This document shows positions 1-32,000 of a DNA stretch of 32,000 bases, piece after piece. The stretch comes from Candidatus Saccharimonadota bacterium (GTDB taxonomy: Bacteria > Patescibacteriota > Gracilibacteria > Absconditabacterales > Absconditicoccaceae): contig JAUIDC010000001.1 of the NCBI GenBank assembly GCA_030429145.1, forward strand, positions 810,001 through 842,000. The letters run 5' to 3'. The notes beneath the pieces were generated by a model. That model saw only the letters and a list, made by a program, of their open reading frames with translations. It was not told the DNA's origin and did not search any database. Position numbers and translations under genes: made by a program. Numbering within the stretch: position 1 is the first letter of the stretch; every line of letters starts with the position of its first letter.

Positions 1-175
1 CCATAGGCTCTTTTTTTGCCTCTTCGACGATGTTTTTTAACTCATCTGGAGCATCAGCAAACATCTCATGGAGCTTGACCTCCCTTGCATATTTTTCTTT
101 TTCCTCTTTGAGTGTTTTCTCATCGACTACCTGAAAGTCGAACTCTTTATTTTGATCGTCTTCTTGTTGAGTCAT
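1..175 (-). CDS. hypothetical protein, N-terminal fragment (gene runs off the left edge)
   Basis: Reverse-strand ATG at 173-175 opens a frame that stays open to base 1 (MTQQEDDQNKEFDFQVVDEKTLKEEKEKYAREVKLHEMF...). It lies 22 nt downstream of the lysS stop on the same strand. No family recognised. Confidence 0.35.
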   Translation of the reverse strand, partial: MTQQEDDQNKEFDFQVVDEKTLKEEKEKYAREVKLHEMFADAPDELKNIVEEAKKEPM

Positions 176-197
176 TATAGTATAGTAGATTGGTAAA

Positions 198-1793
198 TTA
201 TTCTTCTTCTGTATTTTCTGTCTTTTCCTTTAGCATGTGTGCCGGTTTCATCATGGGGAACAATATCACATCGCGGATATTTGGTTGTTCTGTGAGGAGT
301 GCAAAAATTCTATCGATACCCATTCCTCGACCAGACTGAGGTGGCATACCGTATTCCATAGCTTGGACAAATTCTGGGTCTCCTGCAGTCGCTTCTTCGT
401 CGCCTGCTTCTAGGGCTGCAGCTTGGGCATCAAAATTTTTCTGCTGCTCCACTGGGTCAACGAGCTCTGAGTAGGCTTTGATAACCTCTCGACCATTGAT
501 AAGAAGCTGCCACTGCTCTACGATATTTTTATCATAATCATTGGTACGCGCCAAAGGTTGCATGAGCTGTGGATAGTTGACGATAAATGCAGGACCAACT
601 ATCTTCGGTCTGGTTACTTTCTTGTAGAGGTAGTCAATCATCGTAACAAGGCCTTGTTTATCGATGCCTTCCCATGTATATCCTGCTTTTTTGACGTCTG
701 CTCTGAGCTTTTCGTCGTCTCCTTCCTGATAAGATCCAACATCAATGCCTGAATCTTTTTTGATTTGATCGACATAATTGATACGCTGTCGTGGGGTTTT
801 AAATGAAACCTCTTTTGTGACTCCTTGTTTGTCAGTAACATTGATCGTTTGTTGTAGTTCAGGGATCTTTTTGAAAATATAGTCAAACATCTCCTCGGTA
901 AATTTCATGTTATCCTCATGATTTCGATATGCTGCATAGTGCTCGATCATCGTAAATTCTTGGTGATGACTTGGGTCTGAGCCTTCATTGCGAAAGTCTT
1001 TTGCTACCTCAAAAACCTTTTCAAGCATACCAACGGTAGCTTTCTTAAGATTTGTCTCGGGTGAGATTCTCAGATACATGTCCATATCAAAGTCGTTGTG
1101 GTGTGTCACAAATGGACGCGCTGCCGCACCAGATGCTGCATTGCCAAGTACTGGCGTCTCTATTTCGGTGAAACCTCTCTCTCGGTAAAACTCTCTGATC
1201 ACCTTGAGAAACTTTGAGCGGAGCTTCATCCTCTCGAGGCTCTCTTTATTGAATATCATATCGAGATATCTGTGTCTGTATGCTCTCTCTTGGTCTTCTC
1301 CGATGCCGTGAAATTTGTCTCCAAGTGGTTGGATCGCTTTCGCCAAGAATGTATAGTTAGTTACGAACAGGGTTAATTCCCCTTTATGCGTCAAAAATAA
1401 CTCTCCTTCTACACCGATAAAATCACCAACATCGACCAACTTATCAATTAACTTATAGGCTGTCATATCTTCTATTTCACTTACGGCTTCGCCGTCCTTC
1501 ACAATATGTGTCGCTTCCCTGTGGAACATAAGCTGAATTTCTCCACTTTCGTCAAGGAGTCTTCCGAATGACAATTTTCCATGAGAACGGAAAAGCGTTA
1601 GTCTTCCAGCCGTTTTATACTCATTTTTGGGTGAAGGGATAATCTCTTCTACATCACGAAATTCCTCTTCTTTTTTTGTCAGAAGATCTTGTATCATAGA
1701 GGTCTTATCGTACTTTGGTGCGTAGGGATTGATTCCCATCTCACGTAGTTTCTCTGCTTTCTGTTTTCTTACCTCGTACTCTGAAAGTGTCAT
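198..1793 (-). CDS. lysS: lysine--tRNA ligase (class II)
   Basis: Uninterrupted 531-aa ORF with the class II LysRS layout: OB-fold region (GRLTLFRSHGKLSFGRLLDESGEIQL), motif 2 region (FRNEGSDPSHHQEFTMIE), motif 3 region (GMGIDRIFALL). ATG 1791-1793, TAA 198-200. Confidence 0.95.
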   Translation of the reverse strand: MTLSEYEVRKQKAEKLREMGINPYAPKYDKTSMIQDLLTKKEEEFRDVEEIIPSPKNEYKTAGRLTLFRSHGKLSFGRLLDESGEIQLMFHREATHIVKDGEAVSEIEDMTAYKLIDKLVDVGDFIGVEGELFLTHKGELTLFVTNYTFLAKAIQPLGDKFHGIGEDQERAYRHRYLDMIFNKESLERMKLRSKFLKVIREFYRERGFTEIETPVLGNAASGAAARPFVTHHNDFDMDMYLRISPETNLKKATVGMLEKVFEVAKDFRNEGSDPSHHQEFTMIEHYAAYRNHEDNMKFTEEMFDYIFKKIPELQQTINVTDKQGVTKEVSFKTPRQRINYVDQIKKDSGIDVGSYQEGDDEKLRADVKKAGYTWEGIDKQGLVTMIDYLYKKVTRPKIVGPAFIVNYPQLMQPLARTNDYDKNIVEQWQLLINGREVIKAYSELVDPVEQQKNFDAQAAALEAGDEEATAGDPEFVQAMEYGMPPQSGRGMGIDRIFALLTEQPNIRDVILFPMMKPAHMLKEKTENTEEE

Positions 1794-1873
1794 TCCTATA
1801 GTGAAATAATGTCAATAAATCTTTCTACATATATAGAAATTCCGCGTTTTTGCAATGAAAAAAGGCTGCATGA

Positions 1874-2260
1874 TTATGCAACCTTAACTCTCTTGAGAGA
1901 TTTCTTTTTCCTTTTGGGTAATAATGAATTTTGGATACCAATGATCTCATCTGTTTTGGGGAGTATTTTACATGGATATGAGCTTATGGATGAGCTAACA
2001 ATAGGAAATGCTATGATCTCCGTTCGTGTCATGCCATCAGCTTTAGCCAATGTGATGATGAGTTGAGGGATGCTGGTCTTCCTGTCATACTTATCATCGA
2101 GCTCTATATACAGTAGAGAAGCGTATTCAGGAAATATTCCATAACGCATACGTATAAATTCTTGTATCCCAACCATCTTCACAAAAGGAAAGAGGTATAA
2201 TATGGCGATTACCATATATTGATCTCTCCGCAGGTCTGCGATCTGTAAGGGTCTACTCAT
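1874..2260 (-). CDS. hypothetical protein
   Basis: The track ORF 1874..2359 is trimmed to the internal ATG at 2258-2260 (MSRPLQIADLRRDQY...), ending at TAA 1874-1876. Lys-rich C-terminal tail. The overlapping + strand ORF 1809..2066 has poorer composition. No family recognised and the start is uncertain. Confidence 0.45.
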   Translation of the reverse strand: MSRPLQIADLRRDQYMVIAILYLFPFVKMVGIQEFIRMRYGIFPEYASLLYIELDDKYDRKTSIPQLIITLAKADGMTRTEIIAFPIVSSSISSYPCKILPKTDEIIGIQNSLLPKRKKKSLKRVKVA

Positions 2261-2532
2261 CTTATTCCTTTTTTGTTTATCTATTTCGAAGATTATCAAA
2301 ACTGGATAAGGTTGCAATGAAATTTTATATATAAAGAAACCCGACCTATGTAATAACATAAGCCGGGTGTATGTAAGCTATTATCGCTATAGTGTGGCGG
2401 GCTCCTCCGTTGCCCGCCCTTGATATAGAGATCAGTAACGCCAGATCAAACTCGGAGGGTGTTTGCAGGTGTTACCTAGCTTTCAATTGAAAGGACGTTC
2501 ATTATAGAAATCTTGCTATCGAATGCAAGAGT

Positions 2533-3491
2533 TATTCGGAAAGCATAAATGTTTTGTATGTCACATCCTCCTTGGGAGCTGCTTTTCCATCTACAATATA
2601 TCTGCGGAATCGGGTTCTTTGTTTTTTAGCGAAGTAATGAGTGTTTCTTTTCATCTCTTCTTCGAGTTTGTCTTTGTTGTACTTTCATTCAAGATAGAGA
2701 ATGGTTTCCTTATATCCGATTCCGTTCATAGACTGATGCTGCAGGTTGTAACCTTGGTCTAGTAGTCGCTGAACCTCTTCGATAAGTCCTGTCTGCAGCA
2801 TCTCCTTAATGCGCGAATTGATACGTCTGTTCGTATCCTCTTTTTCGCGCCATAGTCCAAGCATCAGTAAAGGCTGCTTCACTGGTTGCTCCTTAGCTAC
2901 TTCTGTTTTTGTCACTCATATTTTCTCAAAAATCTCTAATGCACGAACGATATATCTCGTGCTGTTCGGGTGATGTTTAGCTGCCTCTTCAGGATCTACT
3001 TTATGGAGTCTTTTCCAGAGTACTCCAGGTTCTTTTTCTTCTAGAGCATATCGTTCTTCACGAAGAGGAAAATCTGGCTCCACTTCAGGCATAGCAAAGT
3101 TCTTATAGAGTGTATCTACATACAGTCACGTTCCGCCAACGATAAATGGTAGTTTTTCTCTTGTCTGTATATCTGTAATGATCTGCTCCGTATCGCTTTT
3201 CCACTGTCCTGCGGTATAGAACTCATCTGGATCAACGATGTCTATCTGGTGATGAGGAATCTTTTCACGAATCTCTTTGCTCACCTTATCGGTCCCAATA
3301 TCCATATAACGAAAAATCTGACGTGAATCTGATGAGATCACTTCTAGTGGAAAATTATCTGCTAACAGAATAGAAAGCTTGCTCTTTCCTGTCGCAGTTG
3401 CTCATCGGATCACTACTGCTCCATCCGGATTCTGTTCATAAAATCTTTCTATCTCTTCTTTCGCTTGTGGCTGGATATCAGTAACTTCCAT
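2533..3491 (-). CDS. miaA: tRNA dimethylallyltransferase
   Basis: Standard-code fragments (2685..2915, 3126..3341 and unlisted pieces) join in one frame through 4 in-frame TGA (3402-3404, 3126-3128, 2916-2918, 2685-2687). Motifs: P-loop VVIR[G]ATATGKS, SDSRQIFRYMDIGTDK, PFIVGGT[G]LYVDTL, THYFAKKQRTRFR. ATG 3489-3491, TAA 2533-2535, 319 codons. Confidence 0.9.
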
Positions 3492-4016
3492 CTATTCTTG
3501 TAATGATTGAACTAAATCATCTTTATTTACCATCATTTGTATCTCGTGCGGTGAAAGCAATTCTCAGTATTTTTTAAAGTACAACAACTTTACTTTTTTT
3601 TCGGGAGATAGTTCATTTTCGTCTAGATAGATATAATCTTCCATTACACTCCAAAAATATGAAGCTTTATTGCATTCAGCCGGGTCATCTTTTGCTCTAC
3701 ATATATCAAAGTATGTGCTAATAAGCTTGTTGCCTCCATGACGAAGACGACGGTTGAACCTAGCTAATATTCTATCATGTCCCTCATTATCTCGATGCTT
3801 CACAAAATAATCAACAATCCTAAATATTAATGGTATCGCTTTGCCCCGTTCTTCATACTTCCAACACTCCATTACTATATCGATTAGCATTAGCTCTCAC
3901 TTATCCTTATGTTTTTCTAGGAGCTCTGGAAATGCATGTTCAAAAAGCACATCAGCCGGCATTTGACTGACGTGCGTGTATTCTCGATCGTCGTGGTGTT
4001 GAGGGACTGAGTTCAT
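3492..4016 (-). CDS. hypothetical protein
   Basis: Track ORF 3564..3890 extends both ways through 2 in-frame TGA to ATG 4014-4016 and TAG 3492-3494 (174 aa, MNSVPQHHDDREYTHVSQMPADVLFEHAF...). It fills the gap between the sod stop and the miaA start exactly. No family recognised. Confidence 0.55.
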
Positions 4017-4619
4017 CTAGAACTTGCTAGTAAAATTTTCTTCTACTTGATCTCGGTTGATAAGATTCCAAAAGCTTTCTATGTAGTCAGGTCTTTTGTT
4101 CTGATGCTTGAGATAGTAAGCGTGCTCCCAGACGTCAATACCGAGAACTGCTCTGTCTCCATTCATAAGCGGATTGTTTTGGTTTGGTGTTGTAACGATC
4201 TCGAGGTCATCGTGTTTCTTGATAACCCATGCCCATCCTGAGCCAAAAACGCCAGCAGCTACATCAGCAAAAGTTTTCTTAAATGCATCCATGCCACCAA
4301 ACGAACCAGCAATTACTTTTTTGAACTCCTCGCTTGGCTCTGTTTTTTCTGGAGACATAATCTTTCGAAAGAATGAGTGGTTTCGGTGTCCACCTCCATT
4401 ATTTTTTACTGCAGTACGGATGTTTTCTGGAAGAATATCAATAGACTGCAATAGTTCTTCTATAGACTTTTCTGCATAGTCGGTCCCTTCGAGGGCAGCA
4501 TTGAGCTTATTTACATAGCCCTGATGATGCTTGCTGTGATGAATTTCCATCGTCTGTGCATCTATATGCGGCTCAAGCGCATCGTATGCGTATGGCAAAT
4601 CTGGTAGTGTGAAAGTCAT
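4017..4619 (-). CDS. sodA: superoxide dismutase, Fe/Mn family
   Basis: 200-aa uninterrupted ORF with the canonical Fe/Mn SOD pattern: LPDLPYAYDALEPHIDAQTMEIHHSKHH, FGSGWAWV, DVWEHAYYL. Metal specificity (Fe or Mn) cannot be decided by eye. Confidence 0.93.
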   Translation of the reverse strand: MTFTLPDLPYAYDALEPHIDAQTMEIHHSKHHQGYVNKLNAALEGTDYAEKSIEELLQSIDILPENIRTAVKNNGGGHRNHSFFRKIMSPEKTEPSEEFKKVIAGSFGGMDAFKKTFADVAAGVFGSGWAWVIKKHDDLEIVTTPNQNNPLMNGDRAVLGIDVWEHAYYLKHQNKRPDYIESFWNLINRDQVEENFTSKF

Positions 4620-4686: not shown

Positions 4687-5457
4687 TTACTGAATACCCG
4701 CTAATATTTCATATCCATTATCAGTTATCAATAATGTGTACTCCCATTGACATCCAATATCTCCGTGTGCAGTATAGAGATTTCGATTGTTAATTTGAGG
4801 TTTTTCGGTGTAGTCCGTCGATGTGATAGCCGTAATAGGTTCTACAGCGATGATAAGGTTTTTTTCCAGTATAGTTTTTTTTGCCTCGGGATTTGGATAA
4901 TTGTAGATAGTTGGTCCTTCGTGTACGTACTTCCCTGTCCCATGTCCGGTGAGAGGTTTAATAATATTGTACCCTTTTTGCGTGATGTAGTGAGCAATAG
5001 CGTACGACCGATCATAGACTGCTCTTCCTGGGCCAATATAGCGAAGACATTCGTCGAGACCCTCTTTCGTAGCTTCTAAAAGTCCAGCTCCTTCTTGGTT
5101 GTTAAACTCTCCTCCGACGATAACAGTCACGGCGGCATCAGTCATAAATCCTTTGTGGGTAACTCCGAGATCTATCTTAAGAAAATCACCATTTTTGAGA
5201 ATATAGTCGTCTGGTATCCCGTGTACGACACAATCGTTCACTGAAAGACAGAGATTGGCAGGATAGCCATTGAACCCCTTGAAAGAACCTTTGAGGTTAT
5301 GTTTCTTAAGAAATTGGCTTGCGATCTCTTCGAGCTCGAGGAGGCTGACTCCTGCCTTTGCTTCTCAGCGTAAAATACCCAGCAGCTCATTGTGATACTT
5401 CCCTGCTTCTCTAATCAGTTCAATCTGTGCGTCTGTTTTTGTAAATGCTTTTTTCAT
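4687..5457 (-). CDS. map: methionine aminopeptidase, type I
   Basis: Fragments 4687..5241 and 5365..5568 share one frame, joined through TGA 5365-5367 (GILR[G]EAKAG). MetAP pattern: CLSVNDCVVHGIP, DLGVTHKGFMTDAAVT, TGHGTGKYVHEGP, AVEP, QWEYTLLIT. Start taken at MKKAFTK (ATG 5455-5457); an alternative ATG lies at 5467-5469. Confidence 0.9.
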
Positions 5458-5483: not shown

Positions 5484-5906
5484 CTATTTTCCTGACGATC
5501 ATCGTGCTCACTCTCCTCTTGCTGTTCCTTCGAGCGATTCGACCTCTTCCCAGTCTACCTGAGCACATGTTTCTATAATAAACTGTGCAATACGATCTCC
5601 AGTTTTGACCTCATATGGCTCTTCTCCGAAGTTGATCAGGATAATACCAATATCTCCTGTATAACTACGATCGACGACTCATGCAAGTACGTCTATGCCG
5701 TACTTATATGCAAGGCCAGAACGAGGTGCAACACGACCATAATACCCTTCGGGCATGAGACAGGCAATATTAGTCTGAAAGAGATGTCTTTCTCCGGGCT
5801 GTAGTGTATAGTCTTCTGTAGCGTGCAAATCATATGCAGCATCAAATCTATGCGCCTGAGAAGGAGTAAGTGCCTTATCTGTCAGTTTCACAAATTGTAT
5901 CTTCAT
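5484..5906 (-). CDS. dut: dUTP diphosphatase
   Basis: Track ORF 5679..5942 continues through 3 in-frame TGA to TAG 5484-5486. dUTPase motifs: AAYDLHA, GRVAPRSGLA, LA[G]VVDRSYTGDIGIILIN, GDRIAQFII, C-terminal TARGE[G]AR[G]SSGK. Start at MKIQFVKL (ATG 5904-5906). Confidence 0.9.
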
Positions 5907-6363: not shown

Positions 6364-7332
6364 ATGATAGTGAGGCAAGAAGTATTTGATACGTATTGGT
6401 ATTTTGCGGCGAAGCGTCAGGATATTTTTTTTAAGAGACGACGCAATGCTCCTCAACCACGAACAGATGATCCTATCTTGCGTGAATATAAGTTTTGTAA
6501 TGTGTATAGATCCGCTGACAGAGTCTCTCAATATTTGATACGTAATGTTATCTATCCTGATAGGGCTTATTCAGCAGATGACACTATTTTTAGAATCATA
6601 CTATTTAAAATTTTCAATAAGATAGAGACACGAAAGTTTTTAGAAAATGAGTTAGGAGATATCACTCTTGCGAGCTATGATTTTGAACTTTTTCACACCC
6701 TCTTAGAAAAGTCGTTACAATCAGGTAGTGCAATCTATACGAGTGCGTATATGTCATGCGCAAACAAGGCTTATGGTTTTGATAAAAAACATCAGAATCA
6801 CCTTAAACTTATTGAACAGATGTTCTTTACTGATCATATTCCACAAAAAATAGCGGCATGTAAAGCTTTTGAGGAACTCTATAGCATCTTTATCTCCTAT
6901 CCTCTCTTAGGGCAGTTTATGGCCTATCAACTTGCTACTGATATCAATTATTCGGAAGTTGTAGATTTCAATGAACATAGTTTTTGTAAAGCAGGACCTG
7001 GAGCTGAAAGAGGTATCAAAAAATGCTTTGCAGACACAAAAGGAAAAAGTAATGAGTATGTTATTGAGCGAATGTATGACAATCAAGAAAAGGAGTTTGA
7101 AAGACTTGGTTTAGAGTTCCAAGATCTTTGGGGTCGTGCACTCCAGTTTATTGATTGCCAAGGATTATTTTGTGAAACTGACAAGTATTCTAGGGCAGCT
7201 TTCCCAGAACTTAAAAGCAATCGTAAGAGAATTAAAGCTCACTTTCAACCGAATAAAAATAGTATAGACTACTTCTTCCCTCCGAAATGGGGCATAAATG
7301 AGAAGATAAATCAGGACTTTATTATATCTTAG
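6364..7332 (+). CDS. putative DNA base hypermodification protein (aGPT-Pplase / 5-hmdU DNA kinase helical-domain-like family)
   Basis: Uninterrupted 322-aa ORF, so the CDS call is solid. The family call is from memory of these motifs: YWYFAAKRQDIFFKRRRNAPQPRTDDPILREYKFCNVYRSADRVSQYL at the N-terminus, and LGQFMAYQLATDINYS...AGPGAERGIKK later. No P-loop is present. It needs an HMM search. Confidence 0.55.
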   Translation: MIVRQEVFDTYWYFAAKRQDIFFKRRRNAPQPRTDDPILREYKFCNVYRSADRVSQYLIRNVIYPDRAYSADDTIFRIILFKIFNKIETRKFLENELGDITLASYDFELFHTLLEKSLQSGSAIYTSAYMSCANKAYGFDKKHQNHLKLIEQMFFTDHIPQKIAACKAFEELYSIFISYPLLGQFMAYQLATDINYSEVVDFNEHSFCKAGPGAERGIKKCFADTKGKSNEYVIERMYDNQEKEFERLGLEFQDLWGRALQFIDCQGLFCETDKYSRAAFPELKSNRKRIKAHFQPNKNSIDYFFPPKWGINEKINQDFIIS

Positions 7333-7399: not shown

Positions 7400-7996
7400 A
7401 TGAAAAATAGAAAAAGACTTTCATTTACCTTGATAGAAATGCTGATAGTCATCGTGATTATCGGTATTTTAGCTGCTGCGTTAGTTCCAAGATTGGCGTC
7501 AGTGCAAGGGAGAGCAAGAGACAGTAAGCGCAAAGTAGATCTGAAAACCATCTACAATGCAAATGAAATTTATAAGGTAGATAATGGCGTGTATCCAAAG
7601 CCAAACAATCTCACAAGAACTTCGGGTGATTACAATATGGATTTTCAGATATACAGTTATAATACACAGCCATGGATTAGCGGTTTAGCGAGCTATCTTA
7701 CAACTATTCCTGTAGACCCTATCAATACGTATGAATATCTCGCTGCACAAGGACATCCCCCTCGGTACACAGGGAACTTTGTCTATCAATATAGTCGTGT
7801 ACTCAATGACTGACTTACCTATGATCTGACGACACAACTTGAAAATCGCAGTGATCCTGACAGATGTGAAGTCAAATTGTACAAATATTTCTATCTAGCG
7901 ACAGGATTTCAGCCTTATTATGGTTGTACTGGCTCTACAGCAAATCCTGCGGCTAAATATATTTACGAGTATTCACCCCACTCTGATTCATTCTAA
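7400..7996 (+). CDS. type IV pilin-like protein (prepilin-type N-terminal cleavage/methylation domain), paralog 1
   Basis: Class III signal MKNRKRLS/FTLIEMLIVIVIIGILAAALVPRL. Track ORF 7355..7813 continues through TGA 7811-7813 to TAA 7994-7996. Alternative upstream ATGs at 7355/7361/7385. It shares the N-terminal helix and the C-terminal QLEN(R/H)xDPDRC and KYIYEYSP motifs with 25112..25684. Confidence 0.8.
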
Positions 7997-8104: not shown

Positions 8105-10087
8105 ATGAGGAAGTTTGCGCAGAGCCTCATAAATACGAAACTATGAAGGTTTAATTTTCGTGTATATGCTGAAGATCAAGGGAAAGAAACAGTGGTGCTT
8201 TTTACTGAAAATATTAATCCACAAAAGCCATTTCTACTAAGAGTGCATAGTGAATGTATGACAGGAGATGTTTTTCATAGTATGCAATGTGACTGTGGTG
8301 AGCAACTTGACTCTGCTATTGCAACAATACAGGAAAGTGGCAACTGAGCTATAATCTACCTCAGACAAGAGTGACGTGGTATCTGACTCTATGAAAAAAT
8401 CAGAGCATATGAGTTACAAGCAAAATGATATGACACTTTTGAGGCGAATGTAATGCTTTGACATAATCCTGATCAGAGAACATATGGGATGGTTAAAGTC
8501 GCTTTAGATGACCTTGGTGTTAAAGATGTTATCCTTCTAACAAATAACCCCTCAAAGGTATCAGAAATTGCAAAGACATGAATTAACATAACAGATAGGA
8601 GACCTCTTATTATAGAGCACAATCCAGTTAACGAAAAATATTTTACAACGAAAAAGACTAAATTTAAACATTTCTTTAGCGATGAGGTAAGTTATTATTT
8701 TTATCAATTTCATGCAGATAAAGTAGAAATAGTACATGAGATTGGCGAATTTTTGAAAAACAAAAAAACAGATCCACTATTAAAAATCTGTATAGGTGTT
8801 CAGTGTGATAGCAGAGATCTTGGAGATCAGGAGAAGACAGACAATATAATGTCTATTTTTAAGGCTTGTGATCTATACAAGTGATTTGTTCCTATCCTCC
8901 ACTTTTCTTATAAATATTCCCAAGATCAAATTTGAGATACAGAAACAATCAAAAATAAACTGCCTTTTGTAAAATACCTTCAGACTAATGACTTTATCAT
9001 TAAGAAGAATGATTTGTCTTTTATCCAATATGCGGCTGAAAATTTTCTCATAGATGTACCTTTGGATAATGAGAACTTTAACTTGGTTGAAGATGAAACT
9101 TTCAGAGAAATAATCAAAAACAATAAGGCTTTCTTGCTCTTAGATAATAGCAAATGAACAGGAGTGCAAGAAGACAAAGACGTATTGAAGGAGAAGATAA
9201 ATGCCCTTTTGAAATATGACCTCAATGATATTGCTATTTTCGGTTGATTCGGTCCAGATGATTTAAGTAATTATTTTGAGCTAAGAAGATACTTTAAAAT
9301 CAATTTTTCTATAGATGCAGAAACAAAGTTAAAAACAAATGGGCAAATCGATGTTGAAAAAATCAAAACCTATTTAACTCAACTTATTCGTTTTGATGAT
9401 CCTGTAGAAGCAGCAATTGAACAAACGAGAACTTTTCAAAATCAGAATAAAAAAGAAGACTGGGTAAATATAGACTTTCTTGGTAACTCATATGCCATAC
9501 ACCCTGCTGTTTTTAATCCAGCATACTTTCCATCTACTCGTTGGTATGCCCAGATGGTAAATAAATATGTAAGTAAGGACGCTAATTTTTGTGAGGTAGG
9601 TTCATGAGCTGGTATTATCTCATGCTATCTAGCTAAAGAAAATTCTAAACTCAAAATTCTCGCGACGGATATAAATCCTTTTGCCACAGAAAACACTTTA
9701 TATAATGCTGAAAAGAACGGCGTAGAAGATAGAATTCAAGTTGTCACTGGAGATGTATTAGATAATGTTGGTAGTATAAAATTTGATACTATCTTTTGGT
9801 CTATGCCATTTGGATTCCTTGATCCATGATTAAACGTAGACCTAGAAGAGGCACAATTCTTTGATCCAGGATATAGGGCGATCAGAAAGTTTCTAAAAGA
9901 CTGTAAAAATCACCTGCATGAAAATGGACAAATACTGATCTGATTCTCGACAGACTTGGGTAATTATGATTTGTTAAAAGATATATGCGATCAGAATAAT
10001 ATAAGACTCGAGAAGCTAGAAGAGATAGAAATGCAAGAAAAAGATGTTGTTAAATTTGAGGTGTTTAAGTGAGTTTATGAGAGATAA
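8105..10087 (+). CDS. three-domain fusion protein: GTP cyclohydrolase II / TrpF(PRAI)-like TIM barrel / class I SAM-dependent methyltransferase
   Basis: Invisible in the standard-code track. One frame is open for 660 codons from ATG 8105 to TAA 10085-10087 if 15 in-frame TGA are read as Gly. GCH II motifs: [29 protein letters not shown][G]RGI[G]L (TGA 8372-8374 and 8384-8386), ANVML[G][21 protein letters not shown]-like motifs: [14 protein letters not shown][G][15 protein letters not shown][G][30 protein letters not shown]. MTase motifs: HPAVFNP, EVGS[G]AGIIS (TGA 9605-9607), [17 protein letters not shown]. Confidence 0.8.
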
Positions 10088-17721: not shown

Positions 17722-17749
17722 TGACAGTCTTTGTCTAATACTTATACTG
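17722..17749 (+). promoter_or_regulatory. sigma-70-type promoter candidate
   Basis: TGC-TTGACA (17722-17727), 16-nt spacer, TATACT (17744-17749). About 27 nt upstream of ATG 17776. Confidence 0.5.
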
Positions 17750-17775
17750 ACTGCTCAACAAAAACACATCAGCAT

Positions 17776-20195: not shown

Positions 20196-20198
20196 CTA

Positions 20199-22219: not shown

Positions 22220-22711
22220 ATGGCTGACAAGATTATTGCTATGCCTACTGATGATGAGCTTTTTGCTGCGTTCCAGTATGGACTTGAAGCTGGTACTCCT
22301 GAACAAAACAAGAACATTCTTGGGATGTTTGAAAAGTTTATCGGGAAGGCAAAAGAACATCTGAAAACACTTGTTACTCTCCAAGACAATGGGCTCGCTC
22401 TCAATTTTAACGAGCAGTCGGGTAACCAAGTACTTGAAGGATTCATCGAGGCACAAGGATTTCTTCTGAAGCTTCCTTTGAAGGGAGTACTTGCAACCTT
22501 TGGCGCATCAACATTTACTGATTTCGTTAACTCAGTAAAATCAGGTAAAAATGGTAGAGAGTCTACTGTAGGTGGTATTACGAAAATCCTTATCGCTTTC
22601 TTTGAAAAGATTGGAGAGAAGTATGAGACTACTGATGATGCAGCGAGTATTACAGCAAAAGTAGAAGCAGTATTTGCAGAGCAACCAGCTGCTCCAGCAG
22701 AAAGTGCATAG
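22220..22711 (+). CDS. hypothetical protein (163 aa)
   Basis: Uninterrupted ORF behind a consensus promoter (MADKIIAMPTDDELFAAFQYGLEAGTPEQNKNILGMFEKFIGKAKEHL...). The longer antisense ORF 22204..22755 is Ser/Pro/Cys-rich and looks like a shadow ORF. Confidence 0.65.
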   Translation: MADKIIAMPTDDELFAAFQYGLEAGTPEQNKNILGMFEKFIGKAKEHLKTLVTLQDNGLALNFNEQSGNQVLEGFIEAQGFLLKLPLKGVLATFGASTFTDFVNSVKSGKNGRESTVGGITKILIAFFEKIGEKYETTDDAASITAKVEAVFAEQPAAPAESA

Positions 22712-22974: not shown

Positions 22975-23622
22975 TTATCCAGCAATCTTTTCTCTTTCAG
23001 TGAGCTTCAATGCTCACTTTTTTTGTAAAAACTTTGGAAGCCGAGGTACGAGAAATAGCGTCCAATGCCAACGTGGTAACGGAAAGTATTTCCTTGCCGT
23101 ATTCCATAGAGAACTCGTACAGTTATTTCGCAAAAACGCATATCTTTCATGCTCTCTATGTACTGTATTGGTATGCATCGCAAGATCGACAAATAACTTT
23201 TTCACGTTTTCTTTCTCTAGGTGCAGTGGATAACGCCAAACGCTCTCTCCTCTTAACTTTCTCAACCCGACATGATCTTCTTCACTCCCCCAAATATACA
23301 AATTATAATATCACAAAAATGTCGCCTTCCAAAAATTATATTCACTTCCTTCATCAAGTTGTGCTTCTACGGAAAGCGTAATCTTCTTTGTATCAGAAAA
23401 AGAGAAGGTAAGCATCGTATGAGCAAGGAGATTTTTTGGACCAAATGGCGCGACGATGAGATCAACTCCTGTTATTTTTTCTACATCAAATGTATCAGTA
23501 ATCCAGCGTTCCTCTTGTTTATAATCTTCACTTGTTCGATGAAAATCTCTCAAATGATGAAAGGTATAGTGTGTTCAGCTATGAACAACGTCGCAGTATT
23601 TATTGTGTCATATCTTAAGCAT
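22975..23622 (-). CDS. DUF4105-like protein
   Basis: Track ORFs 23014..23301 and 23311..23553 are one frame, extended both ways through 4 TGA. ATG 23620-23622, TAA 22975-22977, 215 aa. DUF4105-like pattern: HHLRDFHRTSEDYKQEERW, LLAHTMLTFSF, ITLSVEAQLDEGSEYNFWKATFL, YAFLRNNCTSSLW. Confidence 0.55.
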
Positions 23623-23773: not shown

Positions 23774-25036
23774 CTATGAAAACTCAAGTAGTTCGCTTGC
23801 TATGCCATTGTAGAGGTCCAGTCACTCATCAGTCAATTTCAGCGTATCGTCATCGAAATGTAACAGTCACTGATCAGCAAATTGTTCAAGGAGTGCTTTT
23901 CGATTTGATACAAACACTGGGGCGAACGCTTGGAGGTTTTTTACTCAGCGTGCTGTTCTGAGAGCGAGAAAGAAACTTTCAATCAGATAGTCTTTTTCAC
24001 TGAGGATAATCGTGCTGTCTTTCTCGCGAGACGACTCTTTCATATATCAGAAGATACTCGTCGATTCGGTGAAACGAATGCCATAGGACCCTTTTGCTTC
24101 GGGTAGCTGTTGAGCATATTCGCCAGTGAGAAAACTAGAAGCAGATGGACCGATACCAATATAGCTTTGCATAGTTCGATAGACCATATTATGGATAGAC
24201 TCTTTTCCTGGATAGGCAAAATTAGAGAGTTCGTATCTTCTGTATCATGCATCGAGGATATGCTCTTTGAGTCGCTGGAACTCAACTGTTATTTTTTCCT
24301 GATCTGTTTCAAATGGCACATGGGAGAGATCTAAGTGACTTTGTCAGTCTATCTCTTTACGCTTTGTCTTTTCTCGCTGTGCTCCCCCAAAGAGTTCCAG
24401 CGTATACAAAGAAAAACTGTCCGCAAATCCGCTTGCTGCTATACTCTGAAATCGCTCACGCCTCGCTCTGTCCCAAAAGAGATACTCATCTTCTCTTGTT
24501 CGTTCTCCGCTACCAAATGCAATAAAGTCTAGGTTAAACACATTGCGTGAATCCTTGATCTCACGAAGAGAACGAAGAAAACCTTGTATCCCTTCAAATG
24601 AGTACTGTCTTGAGGAAAGAGAAAGTATACGATCGTCGAACGACTGGATACCCAGACTAAATCTCACGCGTGGAAACTCTTTATATGTTTGCGTGATTGT
24701 CTGGATAATATCCAACATCTCATCGTGTGGATTTGGATTGAGTTCAATAGATAGTTCTTCCAGGTAGCTAAGATCAAAATACTCTGCTACATGATCAATT
24801 ATTTTCATCAATATTTTTTTTCCCAATATCCCTGGTGTTCCTCCTCCAAAATAGAGTGTCTTCAAGGCCGGCTTATCATATAACTTTCCCCAATGCTCAA
24901 TATCACGTACTACTCCCTCCACATATCACTCTATCATCTTCTGTTGTGGATCTACTCACTCTTTTGGTATCACAAAAAAACTGCAGTAACCGCATTTCTT
25001 ATCACAAAATGGCACATGAATATAAAGTGACAGCAT
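23774..25036 (-). CDS. hemW: radical SAM family heme chaperone HemW / coproporphyrinogen III oxidase-like protein
   Basis: Track ORF 24344..24922 is the core. The frame continues both ways through 8 in-frame TGA: ATG 25034-25036, TAG 23774-23776, 420 aa. Motifs: radical SAM cluster LYIHVPFCDKKCGYCSF, LYFGGGTP, SIELNP, GIQSFDD, DA[G]YRRYELSNFAYPGKESIHN, YIGIGPSASS. Confidence 0.85.
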
Positions 25037-25756: not shown

Positions 25757-26299
25757 ATGAAAGAGATATCGAGAAAAGCTTTTACATTGATAGAGATGCT
25801 AATAGTGATCGTCATTATTGGTATTTTAGCAGCGGCTCTCGTACCAAGGCTTCAGTCTGTACAAGCAAGAGCAAGGGACAGCAAAAGAAAAGTAGACCTC
25901 AGGACTATTGCGAATGCAAACGAAATTCACAGGTTTGACTATGGAGTGTATGCTAAAGCAGGGACATGTTCCTACAATGTTGGTGGTTGTTATATATACA
26001 GCACAGGTGGTTACAATCCTTGGATACCTATGCTTTCAGGTGTGATGTCCTCTCTCCCTAAAGATCCCATCAATAATCTACCGACACCGTTCTCAACTAC
26101 AGGTAACTACTCATATATGTATGGCAATGTGCATGATGGTAATGAAGCGTATTTCGACCTGTATGCTCAGCTGGAGAATCATAATGATCCAGATAGATGT
26201 GCTATCCAGCAGTATGTCACGAATAAACCTGACAATACAGTTGTTCTTTGTTCCTATCCGGCACCAAGATGGCTACTCTATGTTGTATCTGCATATTAA
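25757..26299 (+). CDS. type IV pilin-like protein, paralog 3
   Basis: Uninterrupted 180-aa ORF: MKEISRKA/FTLIEMLIVIVIIGILAAALVPRLQSVQARARDSKRKVDLRTI, with later AQLENHNDPDRC. Followed directly by a palindromic terminator. Confidence 0.85.
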   Translation: MKEISRKAFTLIEMLIVIVIIGILAAALVPRLQSVQARARDSKRKVDLRTIANANEIHRFDYGVYAKAGTCSYNVGGCYIYSTGGYNPWIPMLSGVMSSLPKDPINNLPTPFSTTGNYSYMYGNVHDGNEAYFDLYAQLENHNDPDRCAIQQYVTNKPDNTVVLCSYPAPRWLLYVVSAY

Positions 26300-26301: not shown

Positions 26302-26325
26302 AAAAAGAGCTCTAGAGCTCTTTTT
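26302..26325. terminator. bidirectional rho-independent terminator (perfect palindrome)
   Basis: AAAAAGAGCTCTAGAGCTCTTTTT is a perfect inverted repeat with A-run and T-run flanks. It lies between the convergent pilin paralog 3 and the uridine-kinase-like gene, whose TAA (26324-26326) sits in the T/A run. Confidence 0.7.
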
Positions 26326-27352
26326 ATTGTTCATATCTGATATACGTACTTCACTCTGATCTTTTTTCTAATATTTTTCTTTTGTCCCCTTTTTTATAAT
26401 GAATGGCCTCGTAGGCAAAGTGTGTCTCATAGTTGAGCCCTGCAACCTGTAAAAGGTTGTGTAGTTGCGTCAGTATCCCTGCCTTTGCGAGAGAAAGAGA
26501 TATATGCTCAATAGTGTTTTGATCTCCATGTTTTGTTGATCTTGTCTTGGCAATGGTTACCGACTTCATGATACCATCTTTCTTATCATAATGTTCCCCA
26601 ATGATCAATTTACCATTTGAGTCATCTGAGGTGTCATTGTAAATGTAATTAACAATATACTCCTCTTCTATCTTATTTTCTCCCGGCTCTTTACCGTTCC
26701 ATGGCTCGCGCAACATCACCTTACCATCTTTTTCTAGGATGTCATAGTAGTTATGAATCACCAAGTCTGCCTTTTCTTGTTGATGTCTACCAAAAATATT
26801 CCACATTGGATAGACATTATTGAGTGCTCCTACTACCATATAGAGAGGCTCTCCTACTCTACCTGGATCTCTCAGGAGACGTCTTATCACAAGATCTTCT
26901 TCAGGAGCAGTTACATAAATTTTAAATGGATTGTGCTTATCGGTCAGTTTTGTAATAGTGTAGAGTCATTCTATGATAATATAGTCATAATGCCCACTAA
27001 GTGTGATAGCAATATCTCTCTTACTTTCCTTGAAATTGTAGGTAGGCATATCAAATGTCTGCTTGTGCATATACTGGTCTATATGCTTGTCCAATAGCTC
27101 ATACTCGATAAGGTCAGGATGGTCGAATGTTCCATACAGTACGGCTTTCAACCAAGTATCATCTCTATAGTAGTTGTCTGAGCTGACAGTGAGTACTTTT
27201 TTGCCTCTCTTTTCCAGTTCTTTCGCTATGATCTGTGCTATATAGGACTTTCCTGATGCAGATGCTCCTGCAACGAAAATAAGCTTCTTACCTGAAGAAG
27301 TAATCTCACTTAAGATGCCGTCCATGTTGTTCACCGATAGGGTGTTTTGCAT
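26324..27352 (-). CDS. uridine kinase-family nucleoside kinase with extra C-terminal domain
   Basis: Track ORFs 26351..26890 and 26966..27475 are one frame, joined through TGA 26966-26968 (IIIE[G]LY) and running past TGA 26351-26353 to TAA 26324-26326. Start at ATG 27350-27352 (MQNTLSV), just downstream of a promoter. Motifs: P-loop FVAGASASGKS, DNYY, FDHPD, PTYNFKESKR, VIRRLLRDPGRVGEP. About 160 aa at the C-terminus have no family I recognise. Confidence 0.68.
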
Positions 27353-27381
27353 TATGTTTCTGAGAGAGTTAAATACAGTAT

Positions 27382-27410
27382 AATTATACGGAAAAAGTAC
27401 TATTTGAGCA
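27382..27410 (-). promoter_or_regulatory. sigma-70-type promoter candidate
   Basis: Reverse strand: TTGCTC (27405-27410), 17-nt spacer, TATAAT (27382-27387). About 30 nt upstream of ATG 27352. Confidence 0.45.
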
Positions 27411-27420
27411 AATTTTAGCA

Positions 27421-27449
27421 TAGAAAAAAGCCCCCCGTCTATAACGAGG
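27421..27449 (-). terminator. rho-independent terminator
   Basis: Reverse strand: CCCTCGT (27443-27449), loop TATAG, ACGGGGG (27431-37), giving 7 bp with one G-U pair, then GCTTTTTTCT. Confidence 0.6.
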
Positions 27450-27765: not shown

Positions 27766-29076
27766 TTACGGCGTAATTCTACCAGTATCCCTTGGGAAGA
27801 GCTCTGCGTCTTTGACGTTTTCAAGACCGATAAGTTTTTGGACAAATCTTGCGATACCAAATCCTCGGCCTCCTGTATCGGCCATACCATATTTAAATGC
27901 ATCTAAGTAGTGCTTGAGTCCTGGATTGTTTGGATCAAGGTCTCTGTCTTTGATCTGTTGGATAAGCTTGTCATAGTTCACTTCACGCTGTGTGATAGTA
28001 GCTAGTTCTACTCCTCTAAAGAGTAGGTCAGCTCTGTCTGTTACTTCCGGATTTTCTGTATTTTGGTGGTGGTAAAACTTAGCGTCAGACCATGGAAACT
28101 CTGTCACAAAAACAGCTTCTGAACCCCAGTTCTTTGCACTGTACTCGCAGATAAATCTCTCCTCTGCTGGTACAACATCGAGCTCTTTTGTGTAGTCTTC
28201 TCCTGTTTCTTTGAGCATCAACTCATGAAGTTCTTTCACGGTGATACGAGGAAATTTCTCTGAAAGGAGTGGCTTTGTTGCTCCAAGAGCTTCCAGCTGA
28301 CCACCTGCCTTTTCCCATGTTTTTGTGATCACATACTGCAAAAACTGTTCAGCAAGTTCGAGCACCTGCTCCACATTATCGATAAATCAGGTCTCCACAT
28401 CAAGCATCAGTATCTCTGACATATGTCTGGAAGTATTTGACTTCTCTGCTCTGTATGCCCTTCCTATCTCATAGACTCTTTCAAAGATGGCTGACATAAT
28501 CTGCTTATAAAACTGAGGGCTCTGAGCAAGATATGCCTCTCTGTCAAAATAGTCTACCTTGAAGACCTCTGCTCCTCCTTCTGTCGGAAATGCAATAATC
28601 TTCGGCGTGTTAATCTGCGTAAAGTCATGATTGTCAAAGAACTCTCTCATATATTTCTCTGCTACTGCCGCAACCTTGAAAATTCTCATCTGTCTTGGAT
28701 GACGTAGCGCAACGACTTTATTGTCATGAATGGTCTCCATGTCAGCATGAATATCCTCTTTTGAGATATCTATTGGTGAGGGATGTGATATAGCTCTAAT
28801 GACTTCAACACTTTCTCCACCTATCTCAAATCCAAACTTAGTCTTTGGAGCTTCTTTCACTGTTCCTTGTATACGCAAAACAGTACCCATCAGGCAACCA
28901 TCCAATTTACTAATCTCCTCCTCTCCTTCTAACACTACTTGCATGAGACCTTGTCTATCTCTCATGATCACAAAGGCCAATTTTCATCAAACCAATCTTA
29001 TCGTGTGTAGCCAACCTCTCACGGTTGCTTGCTCTCCTACATGATTTTTTAACTCTCCTGATAGTACTGTTGTCAT
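27766..29076 (-). CDS. aspS: aspartate--tRNA ligase (archaeal/eukaryotic-type, ~436 aa)
   Basis: Track ORFs 27766..28374 and 28387..28980 are one frame, extended to ATG 29074-29076 through 3 TGA (IRLV[G][G]KLAF and DVET[G]FI). Motifs: TVRGWLHTIR...FVIMRDRQG (OB fold), FRAE-type motif 2 YRAEKSNTSRHMSEILMLDVE, motif 3 GRGFGIARFV. The lD.E signature favours AspRS over AsnRS. Confidence 0.82.
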
Positions 29077-29107: not shown

Positions 29108-29452
29108 CTATTTGTCGTACTTTGTATTTTTTCTCAATTTTCTTCTTCCCCAACCAGAGAGTTGTACCTCTACAAAATCTCCTGCACCAGAAGGCTTTTT
29201 GATATATCTCCATCCGTCTGGATCGACACGTAGTCTCGTCTCCCAACAGATTTTTCTTCCTCTCAAAAACCAATGATATTTGTGCCCTTTCGGATTCGCT
29301 TGCACACCAACGACTCCCCACTCTTTTGCCTCTTCGAGTGAGAGCTTTCTTTTTGGATAGTCAAAACGACGCTGTCCCTTAGAACGAGCAGCTTGCTTTT
29401 GGAGCTGTGCTTTCTTCTGTGCTATTCCGCGTTTATTCGTCCTTGATGCCAT
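29108..29452 (-). CDS. hypothetical highly basic protein (114 aa)
   Basis: Uninterrupted ORF directly upstream of aspS on the same strand (MASRTNKRGIAQKKAQLQKQAARSKGQRRF...GWGRRKLRKNTKYDK). No family recognised. Confidence 0.6.
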   Translation of the reverse strand: MASRTNKRGIAQKKAQLQKQAARSKGQRRFDYPKRKLSLEEAKEWGVVGVQANPKGHKYHWFLRGRKICWETRLRVDPDGWRYIKKPSGAGDFVEVQLSGWGRRKLRKNTKYDK

Positions 29453-30227: not shown

Positions 30228-30279
30228 TATTGAAAAACGCTTAGGGATTCTTATAACTGATAGCATAGTTTATGTCATA

Positions 30280-30969
30280 ATGTTATCAGTCATGCAAAGT
30301 TATATGCCGCAAATCGATCCAAGAGATTTATGCTCCGCGCTGAGACTATGCAGTGTCAGACAGTACGGAGACAAATACTACGTTGCCGTCAAGAGACTCG
30401 ATGGCAGCATGACTGAGATACCATTTGACGAGATAGCGAATGCAGACAGCTATGAAGGCAAAACAATTAAGAGAATTTACGGCTCATGACATGTCTTCTT
30501 CAATGAAGACCGCACAAAGATATTCTTAGTGACTGTAGAAAAAGGTGACAATAAACAGGTGCAATTTACTGGAGGCTCTCCTTTGGAAGAGACTCACCAA
30601 CAGGTGGTATATAAGATAGGAAGAGAGGTGAAATTTTACCTTTCGAAGGTAGAAGAAAATGCAATTGCTCGTACAAAAAACAGAACGGGTGTCGAAGTGA
30701 TTGATCACTATAACGAAACTCCTCTCGTTGACTGGGCATTGATGGAAAGCACTGATGATGAGGGCAATAGCTACTGGAAACTCGTCTGCCTCCTTCATTA
30801 TATCGTGAAGAAATCTTCAGGGAGACTGAAGGCACAAAAAGGCATGGAAAATGTGACTGAAGGAGGACGATACGATGTTGATGCAATTCTTTCATGAAGA
30901 ATCCCACATATCGCACCCAATGCTAAACTCATCGTGATGAAATCATTTGAAGTAATGATGGGTGGATAA
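30280..30969 (+). CDS. hypothetical protein (229 aa)
   Basis: Track ORFs 30280..30489 and 30529..30897 are in frame and join through 2 TGA to TAA 30967-30969. No family recognised. Confidence 0.6.
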
Positions 30970-31007
30970 AAGTAAGTATATTTATTTATTGAATGAGATA
31001 ATCTCAT

Positions 31008-32000
31008 ATGAGTGAACAAAGATTTGGACTGGATAATATCGTAGCATGGGCTAAAAGAAAATGATTTGTCTATCCAGGATCTGATATATACGGCGGCCTC
31101 GCTAATGCATGGGATTACGGTCCATATGGTTCACGGCTCAAGAAAAACATCTCTGATGCTCGATGGAAGTTTTTCGTCACAGAAAGAGATGACATGGTAG
31201 CTTTTGATACAGCTATCCTTGCTCATCCACAAACATGGGTTGCCAGTGGTCATGTTGGTACATTTGGTGATTTTCTTATAGATGACAAAAAGACCGGCCA
31301 GAGATTTAGACCTGATAAGTTAATTGAGGATCATATTGCTGTCCATGGAGTTACAAGAGAACAAGTAAAAGAAAAATATGGCGTGGATAATCTTATTCCC
31401 GAGTCTTGGGGTGCAGAAAAAATGCATGAGTATATTATCAAGGAAGGGATTAAAAATCCTGATGCTAAAAAAGATGCTGACTGGACACAAATTAGAAAGT
31501 TCAATCTGATGCTAGAAACTCACTTAGGTGTAATAGCTGATGAGTCTTCTAGAGTCTATCTTCGTCCTGAGACATGTCAGTCACTCTTTACCAATTTTAG
31601 AAATCTTTGTGATACGACGAGAGTGCGCATACCATTTGGTATGGCACAGATTGGTAAATCATTTAGAAATGAGATTACTCCCGGACAGTTTCTCTATAGA
31701 ACAAGAGAGTTTGATCAGATGGAAATTGAGTATTTTGTAGAAAATAAAGAAGAAAAAGCACAAGAGGCATTTGACATGTGGAAGGACCTTTCGATGCACT
31801 TCTGGAAAAATATTGTACAATTGAAAGATGATAATCTTCGTTTCCGTGAACATGAACAAGACGAGCTTTCACACTACTCTCGCGGTACATTTGATGTAGA
31901 GTATAACTATCCATGGGGATGGGGTGAGCTACAAGGTATTGCAAACAGAGGTGACTTTGATCTCACGCAACATCAAAAAACATCAGGGAAAGATCTACAA
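31008..32000 (+). CDS. glyQS: glycine--tRNA ligase (dimeric GlyQS type), 5' part; continues beyond the window
   Basis: Absent from the track, presumably because it has no stop inside the window. ATG 31008, one in-frame TGA (AKRK[G]FVYPGSDIYGGL). Motifs: NAWDYGPYG, WVASGHVGTFGD, LRPETCQSLFTNF, IPFGMAQIGKSFRNEITPG, FLYRTREFDQMEIEYF, GELQGIANRGDFDL. Confidence 0.92.

Follow-up and report, generated by a model that had tools for sequence, protein, structure and literature searches.

The 32,000-nucleotide stretch of the 936,577-bp contig JAUIDC010000001.1 (assembly GCA_030429145.1, positions 810,001 to 842,000), referred to below as the window, was analysed for the genetic code in which its genes are written. 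Comparison with related genes and proteins indicates that it is part of the chromosome of an uncultured bacterium in the Absconditabacteria (SR1)/Gracilibacteria group in which UGA would encode glycine, CGA and CGG would both encode tryptophan, and UAA and UAG would be the only stop codons. Arginine would be written with CGU, CGC, AGA and AGG, UGG would remain a tryptophan codon, and all other codons would keep their standard meaning. We assign this reading a probability of about 0.9.

Gene models were built with TAA and TAG as the only stops, and start codons were chosen afterwards. The resulting 31 models (9,061 codons) are tightly packed and occupy about 92% of the window, which has a GC content of 39.4%. 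Their frames contain 78 TGA codons spread over 23 of the 31 genes, close to the hand count given in the preliminary description of this DNA (roughly 80 across about 22 models), and no TAA or TAG; all 30 complete models end at one of these two triplets, as had been stated (18 at TAA, 12 at TAG). The eight TGA codons that had been quoted individually lie in frame in the genes named for them (8372, 8384, 9605 and 29616 on the plus strand; 3402, 20778, 11042 and 11003 on the minus strand, where a codon is given here and below by its lowest base). Under the standard bacterial code (table 11) the window falls into 62 open reading frame (ORF) pieces, bearing out the warning that it would look rich in pseudogenes. 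When ORF lengths were compared between codes using a greedy set of non-overlapping frames, those of at least 300 amino acids (aa) rose from 4 with table 11 to 13 with TGA as sense; in a control in which TAA or TAG was made sense instead, the number stayed at 4.

No frameshift was found in the window genes, and Pfam domains run unbroken across TGA codons in SHMT, MiaA, GTP cyclohydrolase II, ValRS, AspRS, Adk, the UvrB C-terminus, the HemW-like protein, Map and others (458 bits for SHMT, 238 for IPPT, 163 for GTP_cyclohydro2, 403 for tRNA-synt_1). The sequence recurs with 100% identity over 20,353 shared bases in an assembly made public independently (Logan, run ERR3428547, contigs _4705 and _5926). 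The table-11 calls of that assembly are gene fragments of the kind that had been predicted for standard-code annotation: IPPT in pieces of 59 and 58 aa, AspRS in pieces of 192 and 199 aa, SHMT as 143 aa, and the dut product, annotated as dUTPase, as only 75 aa. Two loci that standard-code annotation had been said to miss altogether are likewise real genes, 8105..10087 having 108 full-length homologues in standard-code organisms and 14783..15241 having an orthologue of the same 152-aa length at the corresponding position in a relative introduced below. The TGA closest to any C-terminus (10070, five codons before the TAA of the gene at 8105..10087) corresponds to glycine in 99 of these 108 homologues and is thus not a terminator.

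To read the meaning of UGA from alignment columns, TGA was masked as X and the proteins were aligned to standard-code homologues. Tabulated in this way, 31 of the 36 placeable TGA codons fall in columns with a glycine majority and 0 of 36 in tryptophan columns. The gene at 8105..10087 encodes a fusion of GTP cyclohydrolase II (RibA), a middle domain and an S-adenosylmethionine (SAM) methyltransferase. Among its 108 distant full-length homologues, 13 of the 15 TGA columns reach 92% glycine or more, one is 69% glycine and one is variable, while its three TGG codons match tryptophan in 107–108 of 108; alignments to RibA structures in the PDB agree with glycine at the TGA columns. For SHMT, five of the eight TGA columns hold glycine in 105–116 of 120 homologues, a sixth does so in 67 of 120 and two are variable. 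Apart from glycine, the five strong columns contain just tryptophan, which occurs solely in the closest relatives; these carry 10–24 tryptophans instead of the normal 1–3, products of TGA mistranslated with table 4.

The remaining proteins behave similarly. The MiaA columns for TGA 3402, 3126, 2916 and 2685 hold glycine in 3/3, 2/3, 2/3 and 3/3 PDB structures, respectively, and both TGA codons of ValRS are glycine in the Thermus thermophilus enzyme 1GAX. In Adk the P-loop TGA is glycine in three of three PDB structures and the second TGA column is variable (L/M); in the UvrB fragment both TGA codons sit on invariant glycines (DADKEGFLRS, TIGRAARN). AspRS was compared with PDB entries 1N9W and 3NEL: TGA 28387 corresponds to G or A, and the adjacent pair at 28987 and 28984 aligns to LG or to G followed by a gap. 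The eight TGA codons of HemW are comparable only within the clade, where four columns among 120 homologues contain essentially just glycine and (table-4) tryptophan. We take the dut TGA codons to lie in its G-x-I/V-D and R-G-x-G-G-F-G-S motifs. A small screen of all codons in three proteins, covering 708 conserved columns, paired TGA with glycine in 18 of 19 cases, and Pfam scores rise when TGA is translated as glycine and fall when it is translated as tryptophan: SHMT scores 458 bits masked, 479 with glycine and 454 with tryptophan, and IPPT 238, 247.0 and 235.5 bits, respectively. Together with the codon exchange described next, these comparisons indicate that the preliminary assignment of UGA to glycine is right, and they exclude tryptophan.

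Codon exchange was examined in a metagenome contig of 240 kb (Logan SRR32417865_260; locus L084), which was reached via its HemW homologue and is syntenic with the window from about 11.6 to 32 kb. An earlier contig search with the SHMT alignment had listed 80 loci, almost all of them standard-code, with one from Gracilibacteria and one from Peregrinibacteria among them; the tblastn ranking used there penalises genes broken by TGA. A SHMT protein search of species-representative contigs found no relative, so that the present genome is itself absent from that set. From L084, 15 orthologue pairs (51–86% identity) yielded about 4,000 codon pairs; TGA, CGA and CGG were masked for their alignment. 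Opposite the window's TGA codons the relative has GGN 22 times, TGA 8 times and TGG never; opposite the window's GGN codons it has TGA 16 times and GGN 191 times; and opposite the window's TGG codons neither GGN nor TGA occurs (TGA versus TGG exchange, Fisher p = 6e-15). The gene at 14783..15241 follows the same pattern, its TGA codons pairing with GGN and TGA in the L084 orthologue. In Absconditicoccus praedator (CP054059.1; locus L085), TGA stands opposite TGA at 13 positions and opposite a GGN codon of the window at 32, and in the SRR32417865_260 orthologue of the RibA-methyltransferase the 15 window TGA codons pair with TGA (8), GGA (6) and GGT (1). In relatives, then, TGA trades places with GGN but not once with TGG, and it is therefore one of the synonymous glycine codons of this clade.

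According to the preliminary description, table 25 gives a coherent reading of the window. Its glycine assignment for UGA stands; its retention of arginine for CGA and CGG (together CGR) does not, since the 48 CGA and 11 CGG codons of the window act as tryptophan and make up about 36% of its tryptophan codons. Placement was possible for 27 of these 59: nine fall in tryptophan columns of standard-code homologues, five in columns that contain only W and R in the nearest relatives, eight in aromatic or aliphatic columns, five in variable columns and none in an arginine-majority column. In ValRS, residues 128 and 186 (CGA) and 615 and 784 (CGG) are all tryptophan in 1GAX (VWQWK, LVNWC, ILFLWV, FCDWY). 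SodA residues 85 and 189 (CGA 4365 and 4053) are tryptophan in four of four PDB superoxide dismutases (NHSLFW, VVNWE), and the column for CGA 4383 is leucine. SHMT residue 203 (CGG 20946) is tryptophan in 95 of 99 homologues, and MiaA residue 294 (CGA 2610) in three of three PDB structures (motif ...QLTWF...). Elsewhere the column for UvrB CGA 10685 is leucine and that for AspRS CGA 27865 is phenylalanine (GGFxxG) in 1N9W and 3NEL.

LysRS and HemW extend this pattern within the clade. At LysRS residue 335 (CGA) the 139 distant homologues have W78/F40/Y14, and the 11 nearest relatives have tryptophan, or arginine translated from CGR, at the CGA residues 290, 335, 435 and 489 in 10–11 cases, while the column for residue 204 is mixed. 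Residue 435 was considered as a counter-example, being arginine in three of four PDB structures, and was rejected: distant homologues have M33/W23/R15/K12 there, and 10 of the 11 nearest relatives have tryptophan. Among the 120 clade homologues of HemW, residue 287 (CGA 24176, HNxxY-W motif) is R85/W35 with nothing else, and residue 221 (CGA 24374) is R58/W49. Such columns of R and W arise because standard translations of CGR stand beside genuine TGG. The other arginine codons (CGT, CGC, AGA, AGG) fall on conserved arginines, with all CGT, CGC and AGG and most AGA codons of SHMT on arginine columns, and the 59 other sense codons look standard over the 708 conserved columns. Translating CGR as tryptophan adds about 7 Pfam bits for SHMT (479 to 485), 11 for MiaA (247.0 to 258.4) and 20 for SodA (239.4 to 258.9).

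The orthologue pairs with L084 gave a consistent answer. The 27 aligned CGR codons of the window stand opposite CGA/CGG 18 times, TGG 8 times and CGY (CGT or CGC) once, and the window's TGG codons stand opposite CGA/CGG 18 times and TGG 29 times. Codons of the CGY and AGR (AGA or AGG) sets pair with one another 150 times and never with CGR or TGG (Fisher p = 1e-12). In the RibA-methyltransferase, which has no CGR codon in the window, a CGG of the relative lies opposite a window TGG in a column that is tryptophan in at least 107 of 108 homologues. We regard the exchange with L084 as decisive for reading CGA and CGG as tryptophan. Over 49 kb of the genome, CGA occurs 52, CGG 12 and TGG 88 times per 10,000 codons; CGR makes up about 42% of tryptophan codons in these 49 kb and 51% in the relative.

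All three reassignments have been published for the clade, and the window is a further member of it; the code itself is not new. UGA as glycine is known from Absconditabacteria (SR1) and Gracilibacteria (PMC8629427), CGA and CGG as tryptophan were predicted for Absconditabacteria by Codetta with matching tRNAs (Shulgina & Eddy 2021, eLife, PMC8629427), and a 2026 paper treats both as established for Absconditabacterales (PMC13092985). The window shares with the published Absconditabacteria code the retention of CGU, CGC, AGA and AGG for arginine, with AGA the main arginine codon (here 235 per 10,000), and, between close relatives, sites at which CGR alternates with UGG (PMC8629427). It differs in that CGA is commoner, at 52–53 against fewer than 37 per 10,000, although the published value refers to Pfam-aligned codons and is not strictly comparable; the CGR share of tryptophan codons (36–42%) is near that of the 'advanced' genome GCA_002791215.1 (PMC8629427). 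Table 25, the code of SR1 and Gracilibacteria as cited in PMC8629427 (Campbell et al. 2013, Rinke et al. 2013), has the same glycine UGA and the same stops, UAA and UAG, but keeps CGA and CGG for arginine. Table 4, the code of Mycoplasma/Spiroplasma and several insect endosymbionts, is alike in its sense UGA, presumably lost release factor 2 and small, lowish-GC genome, and differs in the amino acid, which here is glycine instead of tryptophan. In Anaerococcus and the RFN20/Onthovivens Bacilli an arginine CGN codon has also been taken by tryptophan (PMC8629427, PMC13092985); there, however, only CGG has changed, CGA is arginine, a tRNA(UCG) is missing and UGA is a stop.

Going by the literature on the clade, UGA would be read by a tRNA-Gly(UCA) and release factor 2 would have been lost (PMC8629427, PMC13092985). 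For CGA and CGG the decoders would be tRNA(UCG) and tRNA(CCG), bearing identity elements for tryptophan and aminoacylated by TrpRS. CGU and CGC would be read by a tRNA-Arg(GCG), because these candidate phyla radiation (CPR) organisms are without the inosine-forming tRNA-Arg(ACG). Scans of 64 kb from two recoded relatives (loci L084, L085 and L086) found neither a tRNA gene nor an Rfam family, and two standard-code loci scanned alongside (L004, L005) yielded nothing but ordinary tRNAs for Val, Leu and Arg. No release-factor gene lies within the 49 kb of the present genome examined. SRR32417865_260 carries prfA, the gene for release factor 1 (L086 13961-15037; TIGR00019, 453 bits, above cutoff), which itself contains TGA twice in frame and three CGR codons. 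This gene is expected and uninformative about prfB; no release factor 2 gene was seen in 43 kb of this relative, far too short a span to establish absence. The homologues agree with the preliminary assignment to the Gracilibacteria/Absconditabacteria group: the nearest named matches of SHMT and HemW are Absconditabacterales, Absconditicoccus praedator, Vampirococcus lugosii and SR1 Aalborg, at 40–57% identity. Matches named as Gracilibacteria and Peribacteria are about as similar, and the closer matches (64–84%) are metagenome contigs.

Several readings other than the triple reassignment were weighed against these data. That the window is a decaying standard-code genome, or that sequencing or assembly errors have made false stops, would suit its shattered appearance under table 11, with just 4 of the 62 ORF pieces reaching 300 aa. 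We give this next to no weight: a single stop triplet occurs in frame (78 against 0 and 0), frameshifts are lacking, Pfam domains cross the TGA codons, TGA positions are specifically glycine columns, and both the sequence and the pattern recur, the one in an identical independent assembly and the other in relatives. Selenocysteine, for which UGA is the codon in many bacteria, is more improbable still, as 78 TGA codons in 23 unrelated genes occupy glycine and not Cys/Sec columns and no tRNA-Sec or SECIS-type Rfam match was obtained. Table 4, with UGA as tryptophan, restores ORF lengths as well as table 25 does, and a large public protein collection presents the SHMT and RibA-methyltransferase of this genome with tryptophan at each TGA. 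It is hardly credible nonetheless, given glycine and never tryptophan in the TGA columns, no TGG opposite TGA in relatives (0 of 40), the lower Pfam scores with tryptophan (454 against 479 for SHMT, 235.5 against 247 for IPPT) and a tryptophan content that would reach about 2.0% against 1.1%. Plain table 25, in which UGA is glycine and everything else including CGA and CGG is standard, has its UGA part fully supported and is the sole NCBI table with that assignment; five CGR codons in variable columns are uninformative about it. It is nevertheless very unlikely to be the whole code, as CGR codons occupy invariant tryptophans in ValRS (four), SodA (two), SHMT, MiaA and LysRS and no conserved arginine, exchange with TGG and not with CGY or AGR in relatives, and lower Pfam scores when read as arginine.

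A partly ambiguous code is also unlikely, if less so. Here UGA would mostly be glycine and sometimes a stop or read by tRNA-Trp, CGA and CGG would be a mix of tryptophan and arginine, and selection would bar these codons from some genes. The uneven share of TGA among glycine codons is in its favour (0 of 33 in lysS, 2 of 52 in valS, 15 of 39 in the RibA-methyltransferase gene and 7 of 15 at 14783..15241; chi2 = 82, df 30, p ~1e-6), as is a share of about 4% in four aminoacyl-tRNA synthetase genes against about 17% elsewhere in the window; U34 wobble might also confuse UGA with UGG (PMC8629427). However, because free use is made of TGA and CGR where catalytic glycines and tryptophans are invariant (the Adk and MiaA P-loops, the SHMT active-site loop, ValRS and SodA), decoding appears to be accurate, and the unevenness is equally explicable by the base composition of individual genes (GC 0.33 for the RibA-methyltransferase gene in both genomes). 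The following points count against the triple reassignment itself. It rests wholly on sequence comparison, which leaves room for such ambiguity. Scans for tRNA genes and Rfam families gave no match in the window or in its 17 kb of same-genome flanks (L002, L003). The GC content of 0.39 is just above the 0.26–0.38 published for clades with reassigned CGR codons (PMC8629427). One of the 27 aligned CGR codons pairs with CGY in L084, and CGG has fewer supporting columns than CGA (SHMT 203, ValRS 615 and 784, and the exchange with TGG). The order-level placement, finally, is based only on named homologues at 40–57% identity.

The gene models, with their in-frame TGA and CGR codons, are as follows.

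198..1793, minus strand: lysS (class II LysRS), 531 aa; Pfam tRNA-synt_2, 263 bits; no TGA; five CGA (1182, 924, 789, 489, 327).
1874..2359, minus strand: hypothetical protein, 161 aa; ORF only, no Pfam match; no TGA, one CGG, one CGA.
2532..3491, minus strand: miaA, 319 aa; Pfam IPPT; four TGA (3402, 3126, 2916, 2685); four CGA (3405, 3051, 2766, 2610).
3492..4016, minus strand: hypothetical protein, 174 aa, abutting miaA and sodA; no family; two TGA, three CGR.
4017..4619, minus strand: sodA (Fe/Mn superoxide dismutase), 200 aa; no TGA; three CGA (4383, 4365, 4053).
4687..5457, minus strand: map (methionine aminopeptidase), about 256 aa, start uncertain; Pfam Peptidase_M24; one TGA (5365), one CGG (5008), one CGA (4783).
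5484..5906, minus strand: dut, 140 aa; three TGA (5679, 5508, 5499); one CGA (5502).
6364..7332, plus strand: 5-hmdU DNA kinase-family protein, 322 aa; Pfam PF18723, E = 5e-99; no TGA, four CGA.
7400..7996, plus strand: type IV pilin-like protein 1; Pfam N_methyl; one TGA (7811), one CGG (7763).
8105..10087, plus strand: GTP cyclohydrolase II, middle domain and SAM methyltransferase fusion, 660 aa; 15 TGA (8144, 8345, 8372, 8384, 8426, 8459, 8579, 8882, 8933, 9155, 9245, 9605, 9827, 9941, 10070); no CGR.
10592..11413, minus strand: uvrB C-terminal fragment, 273 aa; two TGA (11042, 11003); one CGA (10685).
11681..14695, minus strand: valS, 1004 aa; TGA 14366 and 14345; CGA 14312 and 14138; CGG 12851 and 12344.
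14783..15241, plus strand: membrane protein, 152 aa; seven TGA; orthologue of equal length beside valS in L084.
15246..15689, plus strand: hypothetical membrane protein, 147 aa; two TGA; L084 orthologue, 51% identity.
15711..17090, plus strand: GH26-like protein, 459 aa; Pfam Glyco_hydro_26; L084 orthologue, 65% identity; three TGA; five CGA (16098, 16107, 16371, 16671, 16692).
17611..18213, plus strand: hypothetical protein, start uncertain; ORF only; three TGA, four CGR.
18337..18747, plus strand: hypothetical protein, 136 aa; ORF only; no TGA or CGR.
18830..19372, minus strand: hypothetical protein, 180 aa; two TGA, one CGA; L084 orthologue, 86% identity.
19434..20195, plus strand: DUF218 protein; Pfam DUF218; L084 orthologue; one TGA, three CGR.
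20199..21554, minus strand: glyA (SHMT), 451 aa; eight TGA (21123, 20976, 20778, 20691, 20538, 20475, 20451, 20331); CGG 20946; CGA 20826 and 20493.
21650..22099, plus strand: hypothetical protein, 149 aa; ORF only.
22220..22711, plus strand: hypothetical protein, 163 aa; L084 orthologue.
22975..23622, minus strand: Lnb_N-domain protein; Pfam Lnb_N; L084 orthologue; four TGA, three CGR.
23774..25036, minus strand: hemW-like radical SAM protein, 420 aa; eight TGA; six CGA (24500, 24452, 24374, 24272, 24176, 23900).
25757..26299, plus strand: type IV pilin-like protein 2; Pfam N_methyl.
26324..27421, minus strand: PRK/uridine-kinase-like protein; Pfam PRK; L084 orthologue; two TGA.
27766..29076, minus strand: aspS, archaeal/non-discriminating type, 436 aa; TGA 28987, 28984 and 28387; CGA 27865.
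29108..29452, minus strand: basic hypothetical protein, 114 aa; matched exactly by Logan contig ERR3428547_5926.
29586..30227, plus strand: adk, 213 aa; two TGA (29616, 29901).
30280..30969, plus strand: hypothetical protein, 229 aa; L084 orthologue; two TGA, one CGA.
31008..32000, plus strand: 5′ part of glyS/glyQS (class II GlyRS), running off the window edge; Pfam tRNA-synt_2b; one TGA; CGG 31134; CGA 31161.

The last of these genes is complete in the same-genome flank (L002). Ten hypothetical proteins rescanned in corrected translation gave no family match, and the 504 bp between the RibA-methyltransferase gene and the uvrB fragment (10088-10591) contain no convincing ORF, tRNA or Rfam match.

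Some of the genes deserve comment in their own right. Full-length homologues of the RibA-methyltransferase (50–60% identity) occur in Patescibacteria, Chlamydiota, Bacteroidales and Flavobacteriaceae; in SRR32417865_260 the gene lies at a different chromosomal site (L086, 10001-11983) that is not syntenic with the window, and in both places its GC content is 0.33 against 0.39–0.41 for the genome. The uvrB piece comprises Helicase_C, UvrB and UVR domains and covers residues 430-659 when aligned with full-length UvrB. Upstream of it the valS stop is 270 bp away, and the N-terminal 430 aa are not encoded at the locus; since the ORF is intact and both TGA codons fall on invariant glycines, the fragment looks maintained and not decaying. 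The best PDB match of AspRS is T. thermophilus AspRS2 (1N9W), and the same window carries a bacterial class II LysRS. The gene with the 5-hmdU DNA kinase helical domain (PF18723) is located on a bacterial chromosome and diverges from the neighbouring dut; the family is known from phage pathways of thymidine hypermodification. The two pilin-like paralogues, at 7400-7996 and 25757-26299 on the plus strand, have the N-terminal segment FTLIEMLIVIVIIGILAAALVPRL in common, and the Logan assembly from the same sample (ERR3428547) breaks exactly at the first copy, around 7441-7460. The hypothetical genes at 17611-18213 and 18337-18747 resemble tandem paralogues, sharing ...I(I/V)(V/I)(S/T)(T/D)(D/E)PVxE...F(T/I)FVPL in their C-terminal halves, with no family match.

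These results bear directly on annotation, and the warning they carry is stronger than the one in the preliminary description. The genome is annotated wrongly under three common tables: most genes fall to pieces under table 11, table 4 puts tryptophan at 78 glycine positions in 32 kb, and table 25, insufficient for this genome, puts arginine at 59 tryptophan positions, several of them invariant (ValRS, SodA, SHMT, MiaA). In the public protein collection, the SHMT and RibA-methyltransferase entries (P0001 and P0440) carry tryptophan at all of their TGA positions (8 and 15), and close relatives in the same collection show a like tryptophan excess plus arginine at CGR sites. Mistranslations of this kind spread into protein databases, structure predictions and CPR phylogenies.

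Reassignment of CGA and CGG to tryptophan is one of very few sense-codon reassignments in bacteria, and its published basis is computational prediction (PMC8629427, PMC13092985). What is new here, beside the shortfall of table 25, is that the window and its syntenic relative supply clean, independent codon-exchange evidence for it, together with high CGR usage at a GC content of 0.39, slightly above the published range of reassigned clades. Use of the reassigned codons is uneven between genes: TGA makes up 0% of glycine codons in lysS, sodA, the 5-hmdU DNA kinase-family gene and some others, 38% in the RibA-methyltransferase gene and 47% in the gene at 14783-15241. In this lineage and the syntenic relative, both of moderate GC (0.39–0.41) and not extremely AT-rich, the takeover of CGA and CGG by tryptophan has reached 36–51% of tryptophan codons and the use of UGA for glycine is strongly gene-dependent. 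We suggest, tentatively and with some doubt, that this may hold genome-wide, the reassigned codons having rebounded under mutation and selection after their capture and their use being shaped by translational selection. They might then be avoided in highly expressed aminoacyl-tRNA synthetase genes, for example because of residual UGA/UGG or CGR ambiguity. If true across the genome, this lineage would be a natural system for studying a late stage of sense-codon reassignment.

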